DNA of 9,675 bases, from contig CAYRPF010000014.1 in the NCBI GenBank assembly GCA_964426185.1, positions 39,627 to 49,301 on the forward strand. The letters run 5' to 3'. The notes under the pieces are model-generated. The model saw only the letters and a program-made list of their open reading frames with translations. It was not told the DNA's origin and did not search any database. The position numbers and the translations under genes were made by a program. Each line of letters begins with the position of its first letter. Positions within the stretch are counted from its first letter, which is position 1. The stretch is from an uncultured archaeon (lineage in GTDB: Archaea > Asgardarchaeota > Lokiarchaeia > Sigyniarchaeales > Promethearchaeaceae). Positions 1,003 to 9,675 of this stretch are shown here, in pieces.

Positions 1003-1533
1003 ATGTCATCAATTACTCATACAGTTATTGTCAATGGTGGATTTAGTTCCTTTTTAGAAACTTTCATAAATTTCCGAGGTTGGCTTCATGCTCTTCCCGT
1101 GTTGAATCAAATATTAGTTTTTATTGGATTGATTGCCTTAACTGTTGGAATCGCGGTGGTTCTATATTATATTATTCAGGGTGCCTTCAAATTAACCTTT
1201 GAAGTGTTAAAAGCTATCGTTCATATGATTAAAGGATTATTAGACGCATTTTATCGCCATGCAACAGCTCCCCGCCATCCACGAAATCCACAACATCATC
1301 GAAATTCGCTACCCGCTTCATCTCCTTATCTAAGAAAACCCGCAAGAAGGATTAATTCACATCACCTTCCTAAAGTTCCTCCAACAGTATCTGCTGCTCC
1401 GAAAAATAATTCTTCCTTGCATTGTCCTGAATGTGGAGAGATCTTTACCCCAGAAATGATACAAGTAATGAGCAAACAACACCAGGTTTTCTGTGAATTC
1501 TGTGGAAAAAATTTGGAATATATAATGAGTTGA
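1003..1533 (+). CDS. Hypothetical membrane protein with C-terminal Cys4 zinc ribbon
   Basis: Long hydrophobic segment (ILVFIGLIALTVGIAVVLYYII), a His/Pro/Arg-rich linker, then CPECG...CEFCG at the C-terminus. A T-rich tract follows the stop. Confidence 0.75.
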   Translation: MSSITHTVIVNGGFSSFLETFINFRGWLHALPVLNQILVFIGLIALTVGIAVVLYYIIQGAFKLTFEVLKAIVHMIKGLLDAFYRHATAPRHPRNPQHHRNSLPASSPYLRKPARRINSHHLPKVPPTVSAAPKNNSSLHCPECGEIFTPEMIQVMSKQHQVFCEFCGKNLEYIMS

Positions 1534-1613: not shown

Positions 1614-3401
1614 TCATCTGATTTCGGCGGTAAATAAGCACATTTTCTTCTTCTTCTTATGATTCGATTGTGGATTTACTACTAAAGGATGATCAAAACT
1701 TCCAAAAATTTTCACAAAATGCTTTTTCTGAGAATTCGCGCGGATAAATTTTATTTTAAATTTGATTTGCGTATCGAATATTGAAGCATGAGGAATCTCG
1801 AGAAATTTGGCAGATAATCCCTTTTCGGGATAAATTTCTAAAGTGTAATTTGCTTGAGAAAAAATAATATCCGTGTGATTCTCTAAAATTACGGATAATT
1901 CCATTGCCGAATTCTCGGATATTTTTAAAATCGGATTGGGTGGCTGAATAATGCGAATGCCAATATTTTCAAAACAATTATACAAAGTAATGCTCAGATC
2001 TTCCACCAATGCGGGTATAATTGCTTCATTCATTATTTCTTGTGTTATAAAGTCAAACAACTCTTGCCATTGCCATTTATTCCATAATTGGATGCATATA
2101 TTGCACTTTTCTATTATCAAATTTGATGCAGCAAGGGGAATAGCGATATCTTCTAAGCGTATCGTAGCTTCGGATTTGATTAATCCGATTTTCAAAGTAA
2201 AATACAATGCCCACAAAGTAAATGTCCCGTAATCCCGTTTAGAAATTAAGTTGTATTGCTCAACGATATCGGGTTTGGAGTAGATAAAATTCAGTACATC
2301 CACCACCAACTGTGAATTAAGGGGTAATGGAATGTATTGGTTAATTAAAGTCACGAGATCGATACCCGAATTTTGTGTTAAATAATAAAGCATGCTCTTT
2401 ATTAGGTGAAATTGTCGAATGTAGGGTAATTTTTGATGGATAGAAATAAATGTTTCAATATATAAGATTGTTTGAGTTAAAATTGAAGCGGGCTGCTTAA
2501 TTAAATCCAACATAAGGTGGGAAATACGATCTTGGAGAATTTTTTCAAAGGATTGTGGCTTTTTATCGGATTGCCAACGGTTGAAATAATTATTAATAAA
2601 TCTTTGTTGATTATTACTCTGATTTAAATTACCGCTTTTGCCTTGAAGTTGACTCTGGCACATTGCCCAGAAAGTGGCTAAAATAACTTCTGCAGGTTCT
2701 TTTTCATCTAAATTCCAAAAGGCTAAAAATAGTTCTCTCCAAAATATAACCTTAAATTCCGATTTATCCACCAAAGAAGGATCGAAATGAAGAATATTTT
2801 CGCTCATCTCTGCCCCAAATCTGAGCTTGGTTGAAATTATAGAATTCTTTGCTAAAGAAACTGTTGGAATGCGGTGTAGGGGTTTACCCCATTTTTTCTG
2901 AAGACTTTCCACCTGTTTTTTAAAGCGTTTGTTCAATTCAATGGATTTAACATCGAATTGTGAATTTTGAGAAATCTTTGGTAATCGATAAAGGGTGATT
3001 GCTTTTCCATAGAGCTCTTTTTGAATTTTTTGGGTGTTTTCAAGCGTAGATGCCCCCAAAGATTGACCTTTGCCATCAATTAAATAAAATCGTAGTTCTT
3101 CTCCAAAATCCAACGAAATAAGAAATACTGTTTGATCTATTGCACGTATCATCACATTCGGAAGTATAGTACCTCGTTTAAACACCGTTTTGGGCTTCAT
3201 CTTCATTAATCGAATCTCACGTGGTTTTTTCAATTGATATTCTTCTTTCACAAACTGGATCATTTTTTTTTTCAAATTCAGTTCTTCATGATGCTTAAAT
3301 CCATCGGAACTTCTCGAATTAGAAAATTTTTTACCTTGTCGCTTTTTTTTCTTAGAAGAAGAATGTTTCTTTCGCAGTGAAGGCGGTCGCGAAGTGGGCA
3401 T
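1614..3401 (-). CDS. Large hypothetical protein (595 aa) with basic low-complexity N-terminus and probable beta-rich C-terminal domain
   Basis: A 1.8 kb uninterrupted ORF in AT-rich DNA, divergent from rpo7. No family recognised with confidence. Confidence 0.7.
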   Translation of the reverse strand: MPTSRPPSLRKKHSSSKKKKRQGKKFSNSRSSDGFKHHEELNLKKKMIQFVKEEYQLKKPREIRLMKMKPKTVFKRGTILPNVMIRAIDQTVFLISLDFGEELRFYLIDGKGQSLGASTLENTQKIQKELYGKAITLYRLPKISQNSQFDVKSIELNKRFKKQVESLQKKWGKPLHRIPTVSLAKNSIISTKLRFGAEMSENILHFDPSLVDKSEFKVIFWRELFLAFWNLDEKEPAEVILATFWAMCQSQLQGKSGNLNQSNNQQRFINNYFNRWQSDKKPQSFEKILQDRISHLMLDLIKQPASILTQTILYIETFISIHQKLPYIRQFHLIKSMLYYLTQNSGIDLVTLINQYIPLPLNSQLVVDVLNFIYSKPDIVEQYNLISKRDYGTFTLWALYFTLKIGLIKSEATIRLEDIAIPLAASNLIIEKCNICIQLWNKWQWQELFDFITQEIMNEAIIPALVEDLSITLYNCFENIGIRIIQPPNPILKISENSAMELSVILENHTDIIFSQANYTLEIYPEKGLSAKFLEIPHASIFDTQIKFKIKFIRANSQKKHFVKIFGSFDHPLVVNPQSNHKKKKKMCLFTAEIR

Positions 3402-3424
3402 AATTATTATACCTTAACATATGA

Positions 3425-3432
3425 TTATTAAA
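3425..3432 (-). promoter_or_regulatory. Putative TATA box for the 595-aa gene
   Basis: TTTAATAA on the - strand lies about 24-31 nt upstream of the ATG at 3401, the spacing expected for a leaderless or short-leader archaeal transcript. Weak evidence given the AT-rich background. Confidence 0.3.
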
Positions 3433-3525
3433 GAATGCGTTCTCTTATTTCTATTAAAAAGGAAAATTTTTTTAGAAATCCATGCCTATCTTTGTTGTTG
3501 GAAATCGATTTTAGGAGACTCTAAC

Positions 3526-4104
3526 TTGTATAAACAACTCACTCTAGAACATGTTGTCCGGATTCCACCCACTAAATTTGGGAAAAATATTGAAGATGCC
3601 GCATTTGAGATCCTCTCTGAACAATTCTCTGGACAAATATTTGAAGATATCGGATTTGTCATCGTGGTAGTTGATGTTCTCGAATTAGGGGATGGAAAAT
3701 TATTACATAATGATCCTTGTCCATATTTTCCCGTTAAATTCACGGTCTTGGCCTATACTCCCGAATTACATGAAATTGTCGAAGGTATTGTCATCGAATG
3801 TGTCGAATTCGGGGTTTTCATCCGATTAGGGCCATCTGACGGATTATGTCATGTTAGTCAAATCACTGATGATTACATTAACTATGATAATATGAGTCAA
3901 CGCTTTATCGGAAAGGAAACTAATAGAATATTGACGGTAGAAGATATGGTCAGAGGGCGAATAATTGCAGTATCCATGGGTTCTGGTCGTTCAGGTAAAT
4001 TGGGCTTGACCATGCGTCAACCATACTTAGGTAAAATTGAATGGATTTGGGAAGAAATCGAAAAAAGTGAGAATTATCAAGAATCCATTGAAGTGGAAGA
4101 CTAA
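3526..4104 (+). CDS. rpo7: DNA-directed RNA polymerase subunit Rpo7 (RpoE', Rpb7 homolog)
   Basis: (M)YKQLTLEHVVRIPP N-terminus, S1 domain EIVEGIVIECVEFGVFIRLGPSDGLCHVSQITDD, and LGLTMRQPYLGKIEW. Start moved from 3421 to TTG 3526, which follows SD AGGAG (3513-3517) and matches the family N-terminus. Confidence 0.97.
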   Translation: MYKQLTLEHVVRIPPTKFGKNIEDAAFEILSEQFSGQIFEDIGFVIVVVDVLELGDGKLLHNDPCPYFPVKFTVLAYTPELHEIVEGIVIECVEFGVFIRLGPSDGLCHVSQITDDYINYDNMSQRFIGKETNRILTVEDMVRGRIIAVSMGSGRSGKLGLTMRQPYLGKIEWIWEEIEKSENYQESIEVED

Positions 4105-4425: not shown

Positions 4426-4755
4426 ATGGAGGATCATGTTACACGGTTTGTTTCGCATGAATATCGAAACAAAGAATTTGAAAAGATGGTCAAAAAAATA
4501 AGTGCTGAAGGGGGGATCAGCGTCGAGCTTACCAGAAAATTTACAAAAGAAGCCATGCATGAATGGGAGCAACAACAGCATCAAGATGTTTTAACATTAT
4601 TTACCGCTCAACCCCAAACGCTTAATTTTGAAATCTCGAAAATGCTGGAAAATTTACGGGATAAACTACGTCCTGTAATTATATCTAAGAAGCGAATTGA
4701 TCGAGCTGTAGAAATTGCGGCGAATTGCTTAGAAAACATGTATCATATTTTATAA
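4426..4755 (+). CDS. Hypothetical protein (109 aa, predicted helical)
   Basis: Co-oriented ORF filling the gap between spt4 and DUF359. GGTGGT lies just upstream and an oligo-T tract follows the stop. Amphipathic, charged composition; no motif recognised. Confidence 0.65.
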   Translation: MEDHVTRFVSHEYRNKEFEKMVKKISAEGGISVELTRKFTKEAMHEWEQQQHQDVLTLFTAQPQTLNFEISKMLENLRDKLRPVIISKKRIDRAVEIAANCLENMYHIL

Positions 4756-4784: not shown

Positions 4785-4797
4785 ACACTTCATATTG

Positions 4798-5376
4798 ATG
4801 TTATATCAACTTCCTACTGAATTACGCGGGCAATTAGCCCGTCCGTTGGGATGCCATTTCATCGGCAGTCCCGCGCAAACATTACCTCATTTGATAAAGT
4901 GGATCAACGCAAATATCTCCGAATTTAATCAAAACCCTCCCTTAGTAATTTCATGTGTGGGTGATATTATTAGCAATACTTTCGTGGAAAATGAGGTGCT
5001 GCTACATTTTGTAAAATATGCATTTATCGATGGGGGAACTCAACGTGATTCAGATATCGATATTCATTGTCCTGCTTCATTCCTTCAAATTTCTTATCAT
5101 AATCCCGCTGGATACATTAATGAGGAAATTTTTGAGTTTATAAAAAAAACCCAAGGTGATTCCAATCAATACTTGGTTTCCATAGAAGGTGAAGAAGATT
5201 TGCTGGTAATTCCTTTAATTTTGAATCTTTCAAAGGGTATGGTATTTTATGGTCAACCTCCAGTTACGGATTTGCAACCTCCAATTCCTGCGGGATGTGT
5301 AGGGCTTCTTATCACACCTCATCTTAAAACTCAAATCCAGCGCTTATTTGATCAATTTCATGTTATCTCCGAATAG
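4798..5376 (+). CDS. GTP-dependent dephospho-CoA kinase (DUF359 family)
   Basis: LPTELRGQLARPLG, VGDI, IDG.T.R, NPAGYI, IEGEEDLLVIP and VFYGQP motifs, plus the conserved position between spt4 and rps24e. Start is ATG 4798 or TTG 4795. Confidence 0.92.
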   Translation: MLYQLPTELRGQLARPLGCHFIGSPAQTLPHLIKWINANISEFNQNPPLVISCVGDIISNTFVENEVLLHFVKYAFIDGGTQRDSDIDIHCPASFLQISYHNPAGYINEEIFEFIKKTQGDSNQYLVSIEGEEDLLVIPLILNLSKGMVFYGQPPVTDLQPPIPAGCVGLLITPHLKTQIQRLFDQFHVISE

Positions 5377-5500: not shown

Positions 5501-5511
5501 AGGTGAAAAAA

Positions 5512-5856
5512 TTGGTAAATATCAACGTTTTAAATCAAAAATCTAATCCGCTACTCCACCGAACCGAAATTGAGTTCGAAATTGAACACTTAGGAGCGGG
5601 TTCTCCGAATCGTTTAGAGGTTCGGGAAAAATTGGCTGCAATGATGACTGCTAAAAGCGAGTTAACCTTTGTTCGGATTATGAAACCTCGATTTGGCATC
5701 CCTCAAGTACATGGTATCGCTCATGTTTATGATGATGAAGCGACGGCGGAAAAACTTGAACCAACTTATATTAAAATTCGAAACATGCCGAAAGAAGAAC
5801 GGAATGATGCATGGAAGGCTGAAAAAGCCAAGAAAAAGAGGAAAAAGAAGAAATAA
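5512..5856 (+). CDS. rps24e: 30S ribosomal protein S24e (eS24)
   Basis: NPLLHRTEIEFEIEH.G.GSPNR.EVREKLA...FG...VHGIAHVYD...EP.YIKIRN with a Lys-rich tail. The GTG at 5503 is part of SD AGGTGA (5501-5506), so TTG 5512 is the likely start. Confidence 0.96.
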   Translation: MVNINVLNQKSNPLLHRTEIEFEIEHLGAGSPNRLEVREKLAAMMTAKSELTFVRIMKPRFGIPQVHGIAHVYDDEATAEKLEPTYIKIRNMPKEERNDAWKAEKAKKKRKKKK

Positions 5857-5872
5857 AAGGTGAAATCAAAAA

Positions 5873-6325
5873 ATGAGTGAAAATAACCTGGAAGCCATGC
5901 AAGAAATTTACAACTCGGGTTCAATTACCACCTACCGTGTGCATAAAGAAGCCAAAATTGAAGATTTACTTCAAGAATTAAATTTAGAAAACAAATATTT
6001 TGTTGTATTAGTTAACGGAAAGAAAGCTACTCCTGATTCAACCATTGCAAAAGATGCCGAAATTACAATTCTCCCCCGAATTGCTGGAGGCGGACGCGGT
6101 CGACGGAATGTAAAAACCAAAGAAAAGCGCCAAAAACCCCCTCGCAATAAAAATAAAGGACCAATGTGGAGTGTGGAAGGGGATAAGGTCATTCGAAATC
6201 GAAAAAGCTGTCCAAAATGTGGACCAGGTGTCTTTATGGCGGATCACTACGATCGGCACACTTGTGGCAAATGTGGATTTACCCAATTTAAGCGTGTCAA
6301 TCGGAAAATTCCAGCGAAAAAGTAA
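5873..6325 (+). CDS. rps27ae: Ubiquitin-like (ThiS/MoaD/SAMP-type) domain fused to 30S ribosomal protein S27ae (eS31)
   Basis: aa 1-73 show a beta-grasp pattern, [20 protein letters not shown]....DSTI...[12 protein letters not shown]. aa 74-150 are a basic tail plus [39 protein letters not shown] (eS31 Cys4 finger). SD AGGTGA at 5858-5863, no internal stop, canonical position after rps24e. Confidence 0.95.
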
Positions 6326-6397: not shown

Positions 6398-6417
6398 TAG
6401 AATGATGGGTGCTCCTT

Positions 6418-8361: not shown

Positions 8362-9105
8362 TTAATCTTCCATTTGATCAATTAATTCTTTTGCATTTGG
8401 CTTATTTTCCAACATAAACTTAATCCACTGCTTAATTGCGTTTTCGCCTCCAGCAATTAAGTCATCTATATCAACACTATCGGTCTCTGATTCACCCTCA
8501 ATAGCTTCTTTACCAATGCGGACATTCCAAATTTTTGCCAATTCTTCCACTGCAGGTGCACCTAGTTTGGCTAATCCCCAAATGGCAGATTCTCGCGTAT
8601 TCTTTTCTTCATGCGTAATCAGTTTAATTAAAGGTTTAATGGAAACGCGACCAAGTTTCGTAAGTGCCCATACTCCACTCGCTCGAATATCTTTAACTTC
8701 ACTGTGCAATGTTTCTAAAAGAGGTTCAACCGCCATAGCTCCCATTTTGCTTAAACTCCAAACAGCAGAAGCTCGCACATCCTTTGAGATGTTTCCCAAA
8801 GCACGAATGAGTAATGGAATTGATGGTTTTCCAATCCTGTTTAAAGCTTGAGCTGCACTCTTTCGTACATCTGCATTATCATCACCCAAAGCCTCAACCA
8901 ATATTTCAACAGATTCGGGTTTTCCCATCTTTCCAAGTATGTAAGCCGCGATTCTTCTATATGTATAATCTTCATGCTCTAGTAATTTCGTCACAGGGTC
9001 TAATGCTTCATCCCCTATTGATGCTAGCTCGTTGGCTGCATCAAGGCGAACCTTAGTGTTGGAATCGCCCAACTTTTGAATTAATTCTTCAATATTTGAA
9101 CTCAA
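8362..9105 (-). CDS. HEAT repeat (PBS lyase HEAT-like) protein
   Basis: About six 30-31 aa repeats of the form VRxxAxxALxxxGxxxxxxLxxxLxDxxxD, with an acidic C-terminal region. Likely start is TTG at 9105 after SD-like GGTGTGA (9111-9117), not 9177. Confidence 0.9.
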   Translation of the reverse strand: MSSNIEELIQKLGDSNTKVRLDAANELASIGDEALDPVTKLLEHEDYTYRRIAAYILGKMGKPESVEILVEALGDDNADVRKSAAQALNRIGKPSIPLLIRALGNISKDVRASAVWSLSKMGAMAVEPLLETLHSEVKDIRASGVWALTKLGRVSIKPLIKLITHEEKNTRESAIWGLAKLGAPAVEELAKIWNVRIGKEAIEGESETDSVDIDDLIAGGENAIKQWIKFMLENKPNAKELIDQMED

Positions 9106-9183
9106 AAAATTCACACCGAAAAAAGTTTTTCTATCATAAAAAGTGGGGGAGAGATTAAAAATATAACTAAATAACAAAATTAT

Positions 9184-9675
9184 TTAGAATATTAACTCTG
9201 AAAGTGATGATACAAAAAGAGTCGGAGTACAATCATTGGAAAAATGGTTCAGATGATCCCGTTTATGAATACCGGTTTCAACTGCTACTGTGGTAATTCT
9301 TGCTCGATTCCCTGCCAAAATATCGGTAGTTAGACGATCTCCAATCATAACCGCCCTTTCTTTTTGGATTTCAAATTTTCTCAAGATTAAGTTAATTCCA
9401 GATGGATCTGGTTTTCCAAAAATTTTCTTTGGAGGATGCTGCAAAGCTGTTTGTAGAAAAGCCACCAAAGCTCCAGCACCAGGCCAGAACGAATCTGGTC
9501 CCGGAAATGAAGTATCAGTATTTGTTGCGTAAAATTTAGCACCTTTTTGAATTAACATCATAGCGCATCGGAATTTGTTATAGGTTACATGTCGATCCCA
9601 TCCAACTAGTACAAAATCTGCCCTAATATCGGGAGGAAGAATTTCCATATCGATGATTTCAGGGTCTTCTTCATT
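9184..9675 (-). CDS. HAD-IIA family hydrolase (NagD-like), 5'-truncated by the window edge
   Basis: VLVGWD, FYATNTD, PGAGA, FGKP, MIGDRLTTDILAG and VETG motifs. The frame stays open to position 9675 (NEEDPEIID precedes the internal Met at 9648); motif I lies outside the window. Confidence 0.92.
   Translation of the reverse strand, partial: NEEDPEIIDMEILPPDIRADFVLVGWDRHVTYNKFRCAMMLIQKGAKFYATNTDTSFPGPDSFWPGAGALVAFLQTALQHPPKKIFGKPDPSGINLILRKFEIQKERAVMIGDRLTTDILAGNRARITTVAVETGIHKRDHLNHFSNDCTPTLFVSSLSELIF

Follow-up and report, generated by a model that had tools for sequence, protein, structure and literature searches.

A Gly-Gly-ending ubiquitin-like domain of ThiS/SAMP2 type encoded as the N-terminal half of ribosomal protein eS31 in one genus of Asgard archaea

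Why ubiquitin is fused to two proteins of the ribosome, eS31 and eL40, in almost every eukaryote is an old question of "chance or necessity", and the 2021 specialist review that puts it in these terms states that archaea have no such fusion and uses that supposed absence in its reasoning (PMC8122580). The locus described here raises this question in a prokaryote. It lies in a window of 9,675 nucleotides (contig CAYRPF010000014.1 of assembly GCA_964426185.1, positions 39,627 to 49,301, forward strand) from an uncultured Asgard archaeon of the Promethearchaeaceae, belonging to the small genus Candidatus Harpocratesius, in which one open reading frame (ORF) encodes a ubiquitin-like domain (Ubl) that ends in Gly-Gly and runs on directly into eS31. 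An earlier annotation made from the letters of this DNA (hereafter the sequence-only reading) had taken the gene for a eukaryote-style precursor. Is the fusion real, is its product cleaved as in eukaryotes, and do the two fusions share an origin? We found no prior report of an archaeal Ubl-eS31 fusion in the searchable literature, outside of which lie subscription-only papers. By text search, the 2010 census of archaeal Ubls makes no mention of S27 (PMC2948915), and the word "ubiquitin" is absent both from the genome paper of the related strain FW102 (PMC8813620) and from a study of 2023 in which FW102 is covered and which deals with the S24e-S27ae cluster of Asgard archaea (PMC10833476).

The fused gene and the families of its two halves

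The translation of positions 5873-6325 (plus strand) is a single 150-aa frame without internal stop, in which a 73-aa Ubl is joined in frame to a 77-aa eS31. Its parts are as follows.

5859..5863, plus strand: Shine-Dalgarno (SD)-like GGTGA, 9 nt upstream of the ATG of the fusion (read from the sequence)
5873..6325, plus strand: whole Ubl-eS31 fusion ORF, 150 aa plus stop, the sole eS31 gene of the genome
5873..6091, plus strand: Ubl domain, aa 1-73, a ThiS/SAMP2-family beta-grasp ending in Gly-Gly (Pfam, AlphaFold2, PDB profile search, dN/dS)
6086..6091, plus strand: codons of Gly72-Gly73, with the predicted cleavage site after 6091
6092..6166, plus strand: basic N-terminal tail of eS31, aa 74-98, which aligns with the tails of unfused orthologs and has no predicted secondary structure
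6167..6322, plus strand: eS31 core, a four-Cys zinc ribbon (C113, C116, C131, C134) and C-terminal tail; Pfam Ribosomal_S27 on aa 99-137

A third glycine (G74, 6092-6094) follows the pair. The sequence-only reading was accurate on all of these points: the fusion is truly in frame, has an SD of its own, and carries its motifs where they had been placed.

The assignment of the C-terminal half is straightforward. It matches Ribosomal_S27 (PF01599) at 70.9-72.4 bits (cut-off 22.3), and the fusion scores 73-74.9 bits against the NCBIfam S27ae model PRK00432 (cut-off 54). The four zinc-ribbon cysteines are invariant, and HMMER aligns the basic tail with the N-terminal extension of eukaryotic eS31. 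This long Lys/Arg-rich tail is not special to the fusion, since relatives in genera g5 and g6 whose eS31 is unfused (L008-L013) share it. Each of the three genomes of the genus has one match to PF01599, including the source metagenome-assembled genome (MAG; 3.26 Mb, 155 contigs, 92% complete).

The N-terminal half is recognized by Pfam ThiS (PF02597) over aa 1-74 with 29.9 bits, or 27.6 bits when the whole protein is scored (cut-off 22.5). Pfam SAMP2 (PF21965) stands at its cut-off of 27, giving 27.2 bits on the isolated domain and 25.0 on the whole protein. For aa 1-74 the ubiquitin model PF00240 returns no match even at E<=1, and the NCBIfam SAMP2 equivalog model NF041919 gives 21.7 bits, far under its cut-off of 70. 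Judged by these profile scores, the domain belongs to the ThiS/MoaD/SAMP superfamily and lies outside the ubiquitin family, in agreement with the sequence-only reading. The same scores make it SAMP2-like, a distinct subfamily carrying the motif ILPxIAGG, and no SAMP2 equivalog.

The structural models are compatible with this assignment. From an alignment of 43 rows, AlphaFold2 (mean predicted local distance difference test, pLDDT, of 87; predicted template modelling score, pTM, of 0.50) places a beta-grasp over aa 9-68 with the order strand-strand-helix-strand-strand-strand (E9-15, E18-23, H29-36, E42-47, E50-52, E63-68; pLDDT 93-98), so that the fold expected by the sequence-only reading is recovered as a prediction. 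Residues 71-98 have no secondary structure in the model (pLDDT 62-78) and the zinc ribbon spans aa 99-139 (pLDDT 91-96); given the pTM of 0.50, the model holds no fixed packing between Ubl and zinc ribbon. Foldseek with the whole model returned eS31 matches only, to archaeal and eukaryotic ribosome chains such as 6tmf_Z and 9fny_AX. Modelled alone, the N-domain reached a pLDDT of 81 and gave no significant match in Foldseek or VIA-align (E>0.04, all Z<5); its compact weak matches (Z<5) included TtuB, MoaD, ThiS, TGS and BubA. A profile of the Ubl family run against the PDB retrieved Pyrococcus SAMP2 (5lda_B), PF1061, MoaD and TtuB at E values of 0.004-0.06, each match reaching the C-terminal end of its target, with GG on GG in the SAMP2 and PF1061 alignments. 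The fold class of the N-domain is thus a predicted one, resting on Pfam, the predicted topology and the weak PDB profile match, not on the structure search.

Reality and distribution of the fusion

Public annotation gives a different picture of this gene. NCBI records name the ORF "30S ribosomal protein S27ae" and start it either at Met98 (53 aa) or at ATT codons (81/87 aa); such truncated calls concern the orthologs L006 (G005) and L007 (G006), and the closed genome of Candidatus Harpocratesius repetitus FW102 is among those so annotated. Because the gene is cut to 53-87 aa in this way, the fusion goes unseen in databases and in surveys of ribosomal proteins, even where the carrier genome itself is surveyed (PMC10833476).

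With a MAG of 155 contigs and low coverage in public contigs (about 3-5x), the long frame might have been an artefact or a pseudogene, in which loss of a stop codon, a shift of frame or chimeric assembly had joined a Ubl gene to rps27ae. The public contigs speak otherwise: a Logan contig of run X2, which comes from another sample and study than the best-matching run, spans positions 6043-6200 with zero differences and zero indels, and the stop codon after the GG that the sequence-only reading had named as its possible undoing is absent. Only this X2 piece bridges the junction; two pieces of run X1 meet there, and neither reaches 31 nt to either side of it. Both of the remaining species genomes of the genus have the fusion in frame as well, one of these being the closed 4,361,485-bp genome of FW102. 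Counted over Logan, ENA, JGI and NCBI assemblies, the fusion occurs in about nine protein clusters at 90% identity. Three JGI samples each yielded a more divergent fused gene (56-63% identity), again directly after rps24e. The Ubl half has a dN/dS of 0.06-0.21 among the three species, with synonymous sites near saturation, and both halves are under purifying selection. A second eS31 gene is absent from the genome. The fusion is real and essential, and its explanation as an artefact or pseudogene is effectively refuted.

The distribution of the fusion is narrow. In the family of 14 species genomes and seven genera, it is found only in genus g1, Ca. Harpocratesius (3/3), while the other 11 genomes encode a stand-alone eS31 of ~60-90 aa at the same locus; in the closest unfused genera no Ubl lies between rps24e and rps27ae. 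Beyond g1, the other 397 of 400 Asgard genomes (85 genera) contain no full-length match at E<=1e-25. In a scan for eS31 across Asgard archaea, open frames were mostly 50-100 aa long among the 150 of 393 matches listed. Three long frames among these (in G136, G016 and G017; L081-L083) were considered as Ubl fusions and rejected on account of their low-complexity tails: their extensions, which bear no relation to Ubls, are a (KAPA)n-like repeat at the C-terminus, or Lys/Ala/Glu-rich repeats of 60-150 aa at the N-terminus.

Broader searches gave a similar outcome. When 185,579 species genomes were scanned with a degenerate DNA pattern of the junction, only FW102 and a single MAG of the Promethearchaeota matched, and in JGI metagenome contigs there was one match; the JGI contig collection is not exhaustive, as the protein index contains three other fused JGI contigs. 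HMMER, run exhaustively over 1.84 billion cluster representatives, placed the ThiS-type fusion in a single cluster (P0012), and the remaining matches inspected that cross the junction were eukaryote-type Ub-eS31, with GG on GG. The other partner of ubiquitin in eukaryotes, eL40, carries no fusion in this genus. Within Lokiarchaeales, Ubl-eS31 thus occurs in a single genus and in a few relatives that have not been binned.

Apart from the Ubl, the locus is the normal rps24e-rps27ae-kae1 locus, another point on which the sequence-only reading was right. The neighbours of the fusion, rps24e upstream and kae1-bud32 downstream, also flank eS31 in unfused relatives, and rps24e is directly upstream in the divergent fused contigs as well. 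The neighbours and the other genes of the window with a Pfam assignment are listed here.

5503..5856, plus strand: rps24e (eS24), upstream neighbour; Pfam Ribosomal_S24e, 93.3 bits
6409..8328, plus strand: kae1-bud32 fusion gene (KEOPS, t6A), downstream neighbour; Pfam TsaD, 248 bits, with kinase/RIO1 on aa 458-557
155-916 and 9184-9648: HAD hydrolases
3421-4104: Rpb7/RpoE
4795-5376: DUF359
8362-9177: HEAT-repeat protein

Kae1-Bud32 is 639 aa long when read from the GTG at 6409, against 575 aa in relatives with the unfused locus. Its true start may be an ATG three codons further on, and the linker between its TsaD and kinase domains (about aa 325-455) looks longer and is rich in Asn, Ser and Lys. 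The ORFs at 1003-1533 (plus), 1614-3401 (minus) and 4426-4755 (plus), of 176, 595 and 109 aa respectively, match no Pfam family at E<=0.001.

The junction and the fate of the fusion protein

What becomes of the protein once it is made? We consider that the gene probably encodes a precursor that is cleaved after the GG. The fusion, its conservation, the families of its halves, the invariant GG and the presence of suitable enzymes are observed, whereas that a cut is made, by which protease, and what the freed Ubl then does are inferred. Translation would begin at the single SD and ATG at 5873 and yield Ubl-eS31, which a Gly-Gly-directed metalloprotease would cut after Gly73, the best candidate being a 168-aa JAMM protein resembling Rpn11 and PfJAMM1 that is encoded on contig C3. 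One product would be mature eS31 beginning at G74, with its basic tail, ready for assembly into the 30S subunit. The other would be a free 73-aa SAMP2/ThiS-type Ubl whose exposed -IAGG end could be adenylated by one of the E1-like enzymes of the genome for conjugation or sulfur transfer. The Ubl half probably also aids in cis the production or solubility of the very basic eS31, and the fusion would tie Ubl output 1:1 to ribosome synthesis, as it does for ubiquitin in eukaryotic UBI3/RPS27A.

Gly-Gly is kept in 10/10 fused clusters despite 40-60% divergence of the Ubl, so that the conservation on which the sequence-only reading depended is complete among fused homologs, and G72-G73 is invariant in 27/27 aligned family members, fused and free together. 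The codons differ synonymously by lineage (GGA GGC, GGA GGT, GGG GGG, GGA GGA, GGT GGT). EITILP[KR]IAGG, with G or A as the next residue, is retained in every fused member, and the ILP[KR]IAGG within it is also the C-terminus of the free paralogs of this Ubl, which stop at GG or one residue beyond it. In HMMER alignments with eukaryotic Ub-eS31, the GG of the fusion falls on that of ubiquitin. With an N-terminal Ubl joined through GG directly to a ribosomal protein in one ORF, the gene has the organization seen in the Ubl-ribosomal-protein precursors.

The residues after the GG are also telling. In the closest genera, unfused eS31 starts M-ARGAKRKVKTKEK, and the fused proteins P0011 and P0012 read GG followed by ARGAKRKVKTKEK (a junction of GG and ARGAKRKVKT, to be compared with M-ARGAKRKVKT in the unfused protein). 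A cut after the GG would therefore reproduce the N-terminus that unfused orthologs have after Met trimming. On the side of translation, a purine-rich SD-like motif precedes the Ubl ATG in 6/6 fused genes examined, and in none of the fused genes examined (n=6) is there a canonical in-frame start between the GG and a conserved Met some 25 residues further on. The conserved basic tail of eS31 can thus be produced only within the fusion and, since no stop follows the GG, ribosomes that start at 5873 must read into eS31.

Proteases of a suitable class are encoded in the genome, which has three JAMM genes (on contigs C3, C28 and C37), five ThiF/E1-like genes and one UQ_con E2 gene. The C3 protein has an intact E...HSHP...S..D motif, is conserved in 11/14 genomes of the family, and is related to Rpn11/CSN5, to the Rpn11-like protein of Caldiarchaeum (CsRpn11 chains 6fjv/6fju) and to PfJAMM1. 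The C28 protein carries an AfJAMM-like domain, and the C37 gene forms part of an E1-JAB pair. At that last locus (C37:19500-24500 = L062:1722-3261, minus strand), in an operon-like arrangement, a 283-aa ThiF/E1-like gene overlaps a 235-aa JAB-domain gene whose product has no sequence match in the PDB, and a gene for a 271-aa protein without assigned family comes next; the pair may be a separate Ubl-conjugation or defence-type module. The genome also has a ubiquitin-family gene, listed below with the free Ubl paralogs.

C28:4226-4417 = L051:1486-1737, minus strand: ubiquitin-family gene, 83 aa, ending TQAGGN (PF00240, 35.8 bits, cut-off 25.4)
C5:120-329 of G000 = L002:117-323, minus strand: free Ubl paralog B, ending ILPKIAGGF (ThiS, 36 bits)
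L060:1532-1738 (G005), L061:1561-1773 (G006) and L021:1504-1710 (G012): free Ubl paralog A, ending IAGG-stop

A JAMM-domain gene lies ~3.5 kb from the ubiquitin-family gene on contig C28. With one free paralog ending in GGF and the ubiquitin-family protein in GGN, this genome needs trimming after GG in any case. The single capping Asn of the latter recalls the end of yeast polyubiquitin. Genera g2 and g7 have no small ortholog of the C3 JAMM, and their Ubls of this family end in GG-stop. The co-occurrence of the small JAMM with Ubls in need of trimming is suggestive, and amounts to at most two independent contrasts, in genomes where other JAMMs are present.

Precedents for the proposed reaction exist. 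In vitro, HvJAMM1 cleaves SAMP1-MoaE, a linear fusion, at the bond that directly follows the terminal Gly, and in vivo it does so in a GG-dependent manner (PMC4443979). CsRpn11 is reported to process an archaeal ubiquitin precursor (PMC6043591) and DrJAMM to cleave MoaD-MoaE (PMC8832034). In yeast, non-cleavable Ub-eS31 leads to poor assembly, instability and initiation defects (PMC8122580). We favor a cleaved precursor because the GG and its recognition-like tail are invariant, because the residues that follow reproduce a Met-trimmed unfused N-terminus, because the region after the GG has no predicted secondary structure and a protease of the right class is at hand, and because of these precedents together with the yeast defects.

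Some considerations weigh against cleavage. Conservation of the C-terminal motif could partly reflect the fold, of which the motif forms the last beta-strand. The fused Ubl also evolves faster than free paralog B in the same pair of genomes (G000 and G005: 67% identity against 85%, with 90% for the eS31 half), so that it may be losing modifier functions and acting only as a tag in cis. Finally, Giardia shows that an uncleaved Ub-like domain on eS31 is tolerable.

These observations lead to the main rival explanation, in which the beta-grasp stays on the N-terminal tail of eS31 in the 30S subunit as a permanent, ribosome-bound docking or regulatory module. We regard it as rather unlikely, although it is not negligible: it has a natural precedent in the Ub-like-eS31 of Giardia (PMC8122580, PMC11354881), and the faster divergence of the fused Ubl looks as if some of the constraints on a modifier had been lost. 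The review attributes the resistance of the Giardia protein to a Gly-to-Ala change at the junction, whereas here the GG is invariant under synonymous variation and the EITILPxIAGG tail, which resembles an E1 or protease recognition sequence, is unchanged. The post-GG residue also resembles the Met-trimmed start of unfused orthologs, the predicted domains are not packed against each other, and in yeast a ubiquitin left on eS31 impairs initiation. Another possibility is that eS31 is made separately by internal initiation, the ORF giving two products and its full-length translation not being the chief origin of ribosomal eS31, as the NCBI calls from Met98 or from ATT codons could be taken to indicate. 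These calls are inconsistent with one another for the same ORF; the ATT starts fall inside the last Ubl strand and lack an SD-like motif, and starting at Met98 removes the conserved basic tail that unfused orthologs keep. Together with the missing canonical start between the GG and Met98, this makes internal initiation very improbable.

Origin of the fusion and its relation to known systems

A cleaved precursor could be an heirloom shared with eukaryotes or a local invention. Free Ubls with the ILP[KR]IAGG end occur in every genome of the family, one or two in each. Paralog A, which in g1 and g6 has GG as its very last residues, adjoins an MBF1-like zinc-ribbon/helix-turn-helix gene, whose product ends FRKRG.KPEYDQ. 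MBF1 is a ribosome-associated factor in eukaryotes, and this neighbourhood may be another link between Ubls and translation. Paralog B usually ends in GG plus one residue (F, Y, H, C or M) across the family, and its orthologs in G005, G007 and G012 adjoin an RNase Z-like metallo-beta-lactamase gene. Paralog A was not found in the source assembly, which is 92% complete, and we do not read this as a loss, as both sister species have it. Since both sister species keep A and B, the fused Ubl is a third copy.

The sequence-only reading had called for separate trees of the two halves. The Ubl tree (66 columns) is weak and places the fused copies nearer paralog A. Neither this tree nor that of eS24 plus eS31 (179 columns) separates one gain from a gain plus losses; fused rows are non-monophyletic in the best trees, and their monophyly is not rejected (approximately unbiased test, p=0.19). 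The fusion would have originated by a recent, lineage-restricted insertion of a third copy of the local Ubl family between rps24e and rps27ae.

The sequence-only reading had offered the gene as either a forerunner of the eukaryotic fusion or a convergent parallel. The evidence favors the second, with a single genus, a different Ubl family and an unfused remainder of the family. Under the forerunner hypothesis, Ubl-eS31 would already have existed in the archaeal ancestor of eukaryotes and its Ubl would later have been swapped for ubiquitin. That the host is an Asgard archaeon, that the junction has identical geometry, down to the HMMER alignment of its GG with that of Ub-eS31, and that the eS24 plus eS31 tree would allow an earlier gain that sister genera then lost can all be cited in its favor. 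However, a single genus was found to have the junction when 185,579 species genomes were scanned, the other 397 of 400 Asgard genomes lack a full-length match at E<=1e-25, the three longest eS31 frames among the 150 matches listed are low-complexity tails, and the remaining 11 members of the family have an unfused eS31 in this position. Moreover, the Ubl is of ThiS/SAMP2 type in a genome with a separate ubiquitin-family gene, and eL40 is unfused. We therefore see very little chance that the fusion is ancestral. The Harpocratesius fusion is probably convergent with eukaryotic Ub-eS31 and not its ancestor, to judge from how narrowly it is distributed, from its Ubl being of another family, from the ubiquitin-family protein having a gene of its own, and from eL40 being unfused.

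The resemblance to eukaryotic Ub-eS31 (yeast UBI3, human RPS27A/UBA80) is nevertheless close: an N-terminal beta-grasp modifier has its GG directly on the basic tail of eS31, and the fusion is the main or only source of eS31. It differs in its ThiS/SAMP2-family modifier, its archaeal host, its restriction to one genus and its apparently independent origin, and also in the likely protease, which would be a JAMM instead of a USP/UCH-type deubiquitinase, for a cleavage that is here a proposal. Animal FUBI-eS30 (FAU) similarly places a non-ubiquitin Ubl ending in GG at the N-terminus of a small basic protein of the small subunit, and FUBI is reported to be removed from eS30 before the latter functions (PMC8122580; PMC10611586). 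In contrast to our case, the ribosomal partner there is eS30, and FUBI is a eukaryotic Ubl from within the ubiquitin family proper, with USP36 as the processing enzyme.

Among prokaryotic systems, the fused domain shares its Pfam families and its predicted beta-grasp with SAMP2/ThiS-type Ubls (Haloferax SAMP2, Pyrococcus PF1061/SAMP2, TtuB); unlike the known SAMPs, which are free-standing, it is translated as the N-terminal half of a ribosomal protein. MoaD-MoaE fusions, namely those handled by HvJAMM1 (SAMP1-MoaE) and by DrJAMM, likewise join a prokaryotic ThiS/MoaD-type Ubl to its partner via GG, and a JAMM/MPN+ metalloprotease is reported to free the Ubl by a cut right behind its terminal Gly. 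However, MoaE is the Ubl's own partner in molybdopterin synthase, whereas eS31 has no known functional tie to the Ubl. The ubiquitin precursor of Caldiarchaeum subterraneum is another archaeal Ubl with a C-terminal extension, reported to be taken off by an Rpn11-like JAMM, and a CsRpn11-like JAMM occurs in our genome. The extension there is a short peptide, on a ubiquitin-type Ubl within an E1/E2/E3 operon. A further parallel is the thaumarchaeal Cgi121-Ubl, in which a Ubl is fused to a component of KEOPS (PMC2948915), our fusion lying directly upstream of kae1-bud32. The partner is a different one, and that paper describes no ribosomal-protein precursor joined at GG. By analogy, the mechanism would resemble that of the UBI3/RPS27A and FUBI-eS30 precursors, as well as that of the JAMM-cleaved MoaD-MoaE fusions.

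Taking the parts together, we give roughly even odds to the full proposal, namely that Asgard archaea invented independently a working, cleaved Ubl-eS31 precursor whose released Ubl is a functional modifier or sulfur carrier, supplied in step with ribosome synthesis. Because Ca. H. repetitus FW102 was obtained from enrichment cultures (PMC8813620), proteomic and structural tests are realistic.

The fusion provides a second natural occurrence, and with it an independent test of the old question, in a prokaryote, with another Ubl family and another likely class of protease, at the same residue of eS31. If the protein is not cleaved, it parallels that of Giardia and shows that a Ubl can sit near the decoding centre of an archaeal ribosome. 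If it is cleaved, something about eS31 itself favours the fusion. Should the proposal hold in full, two lineages would have converged on a GG modifier fused to the same ribosomal protein at the same residue, which would argue that Ub-eS31 is no frozen accident and answers a specific need of eS31, be it that its basic tail must be folded, kept soluble or delivered, or that quality is controlled at the decoding centre.

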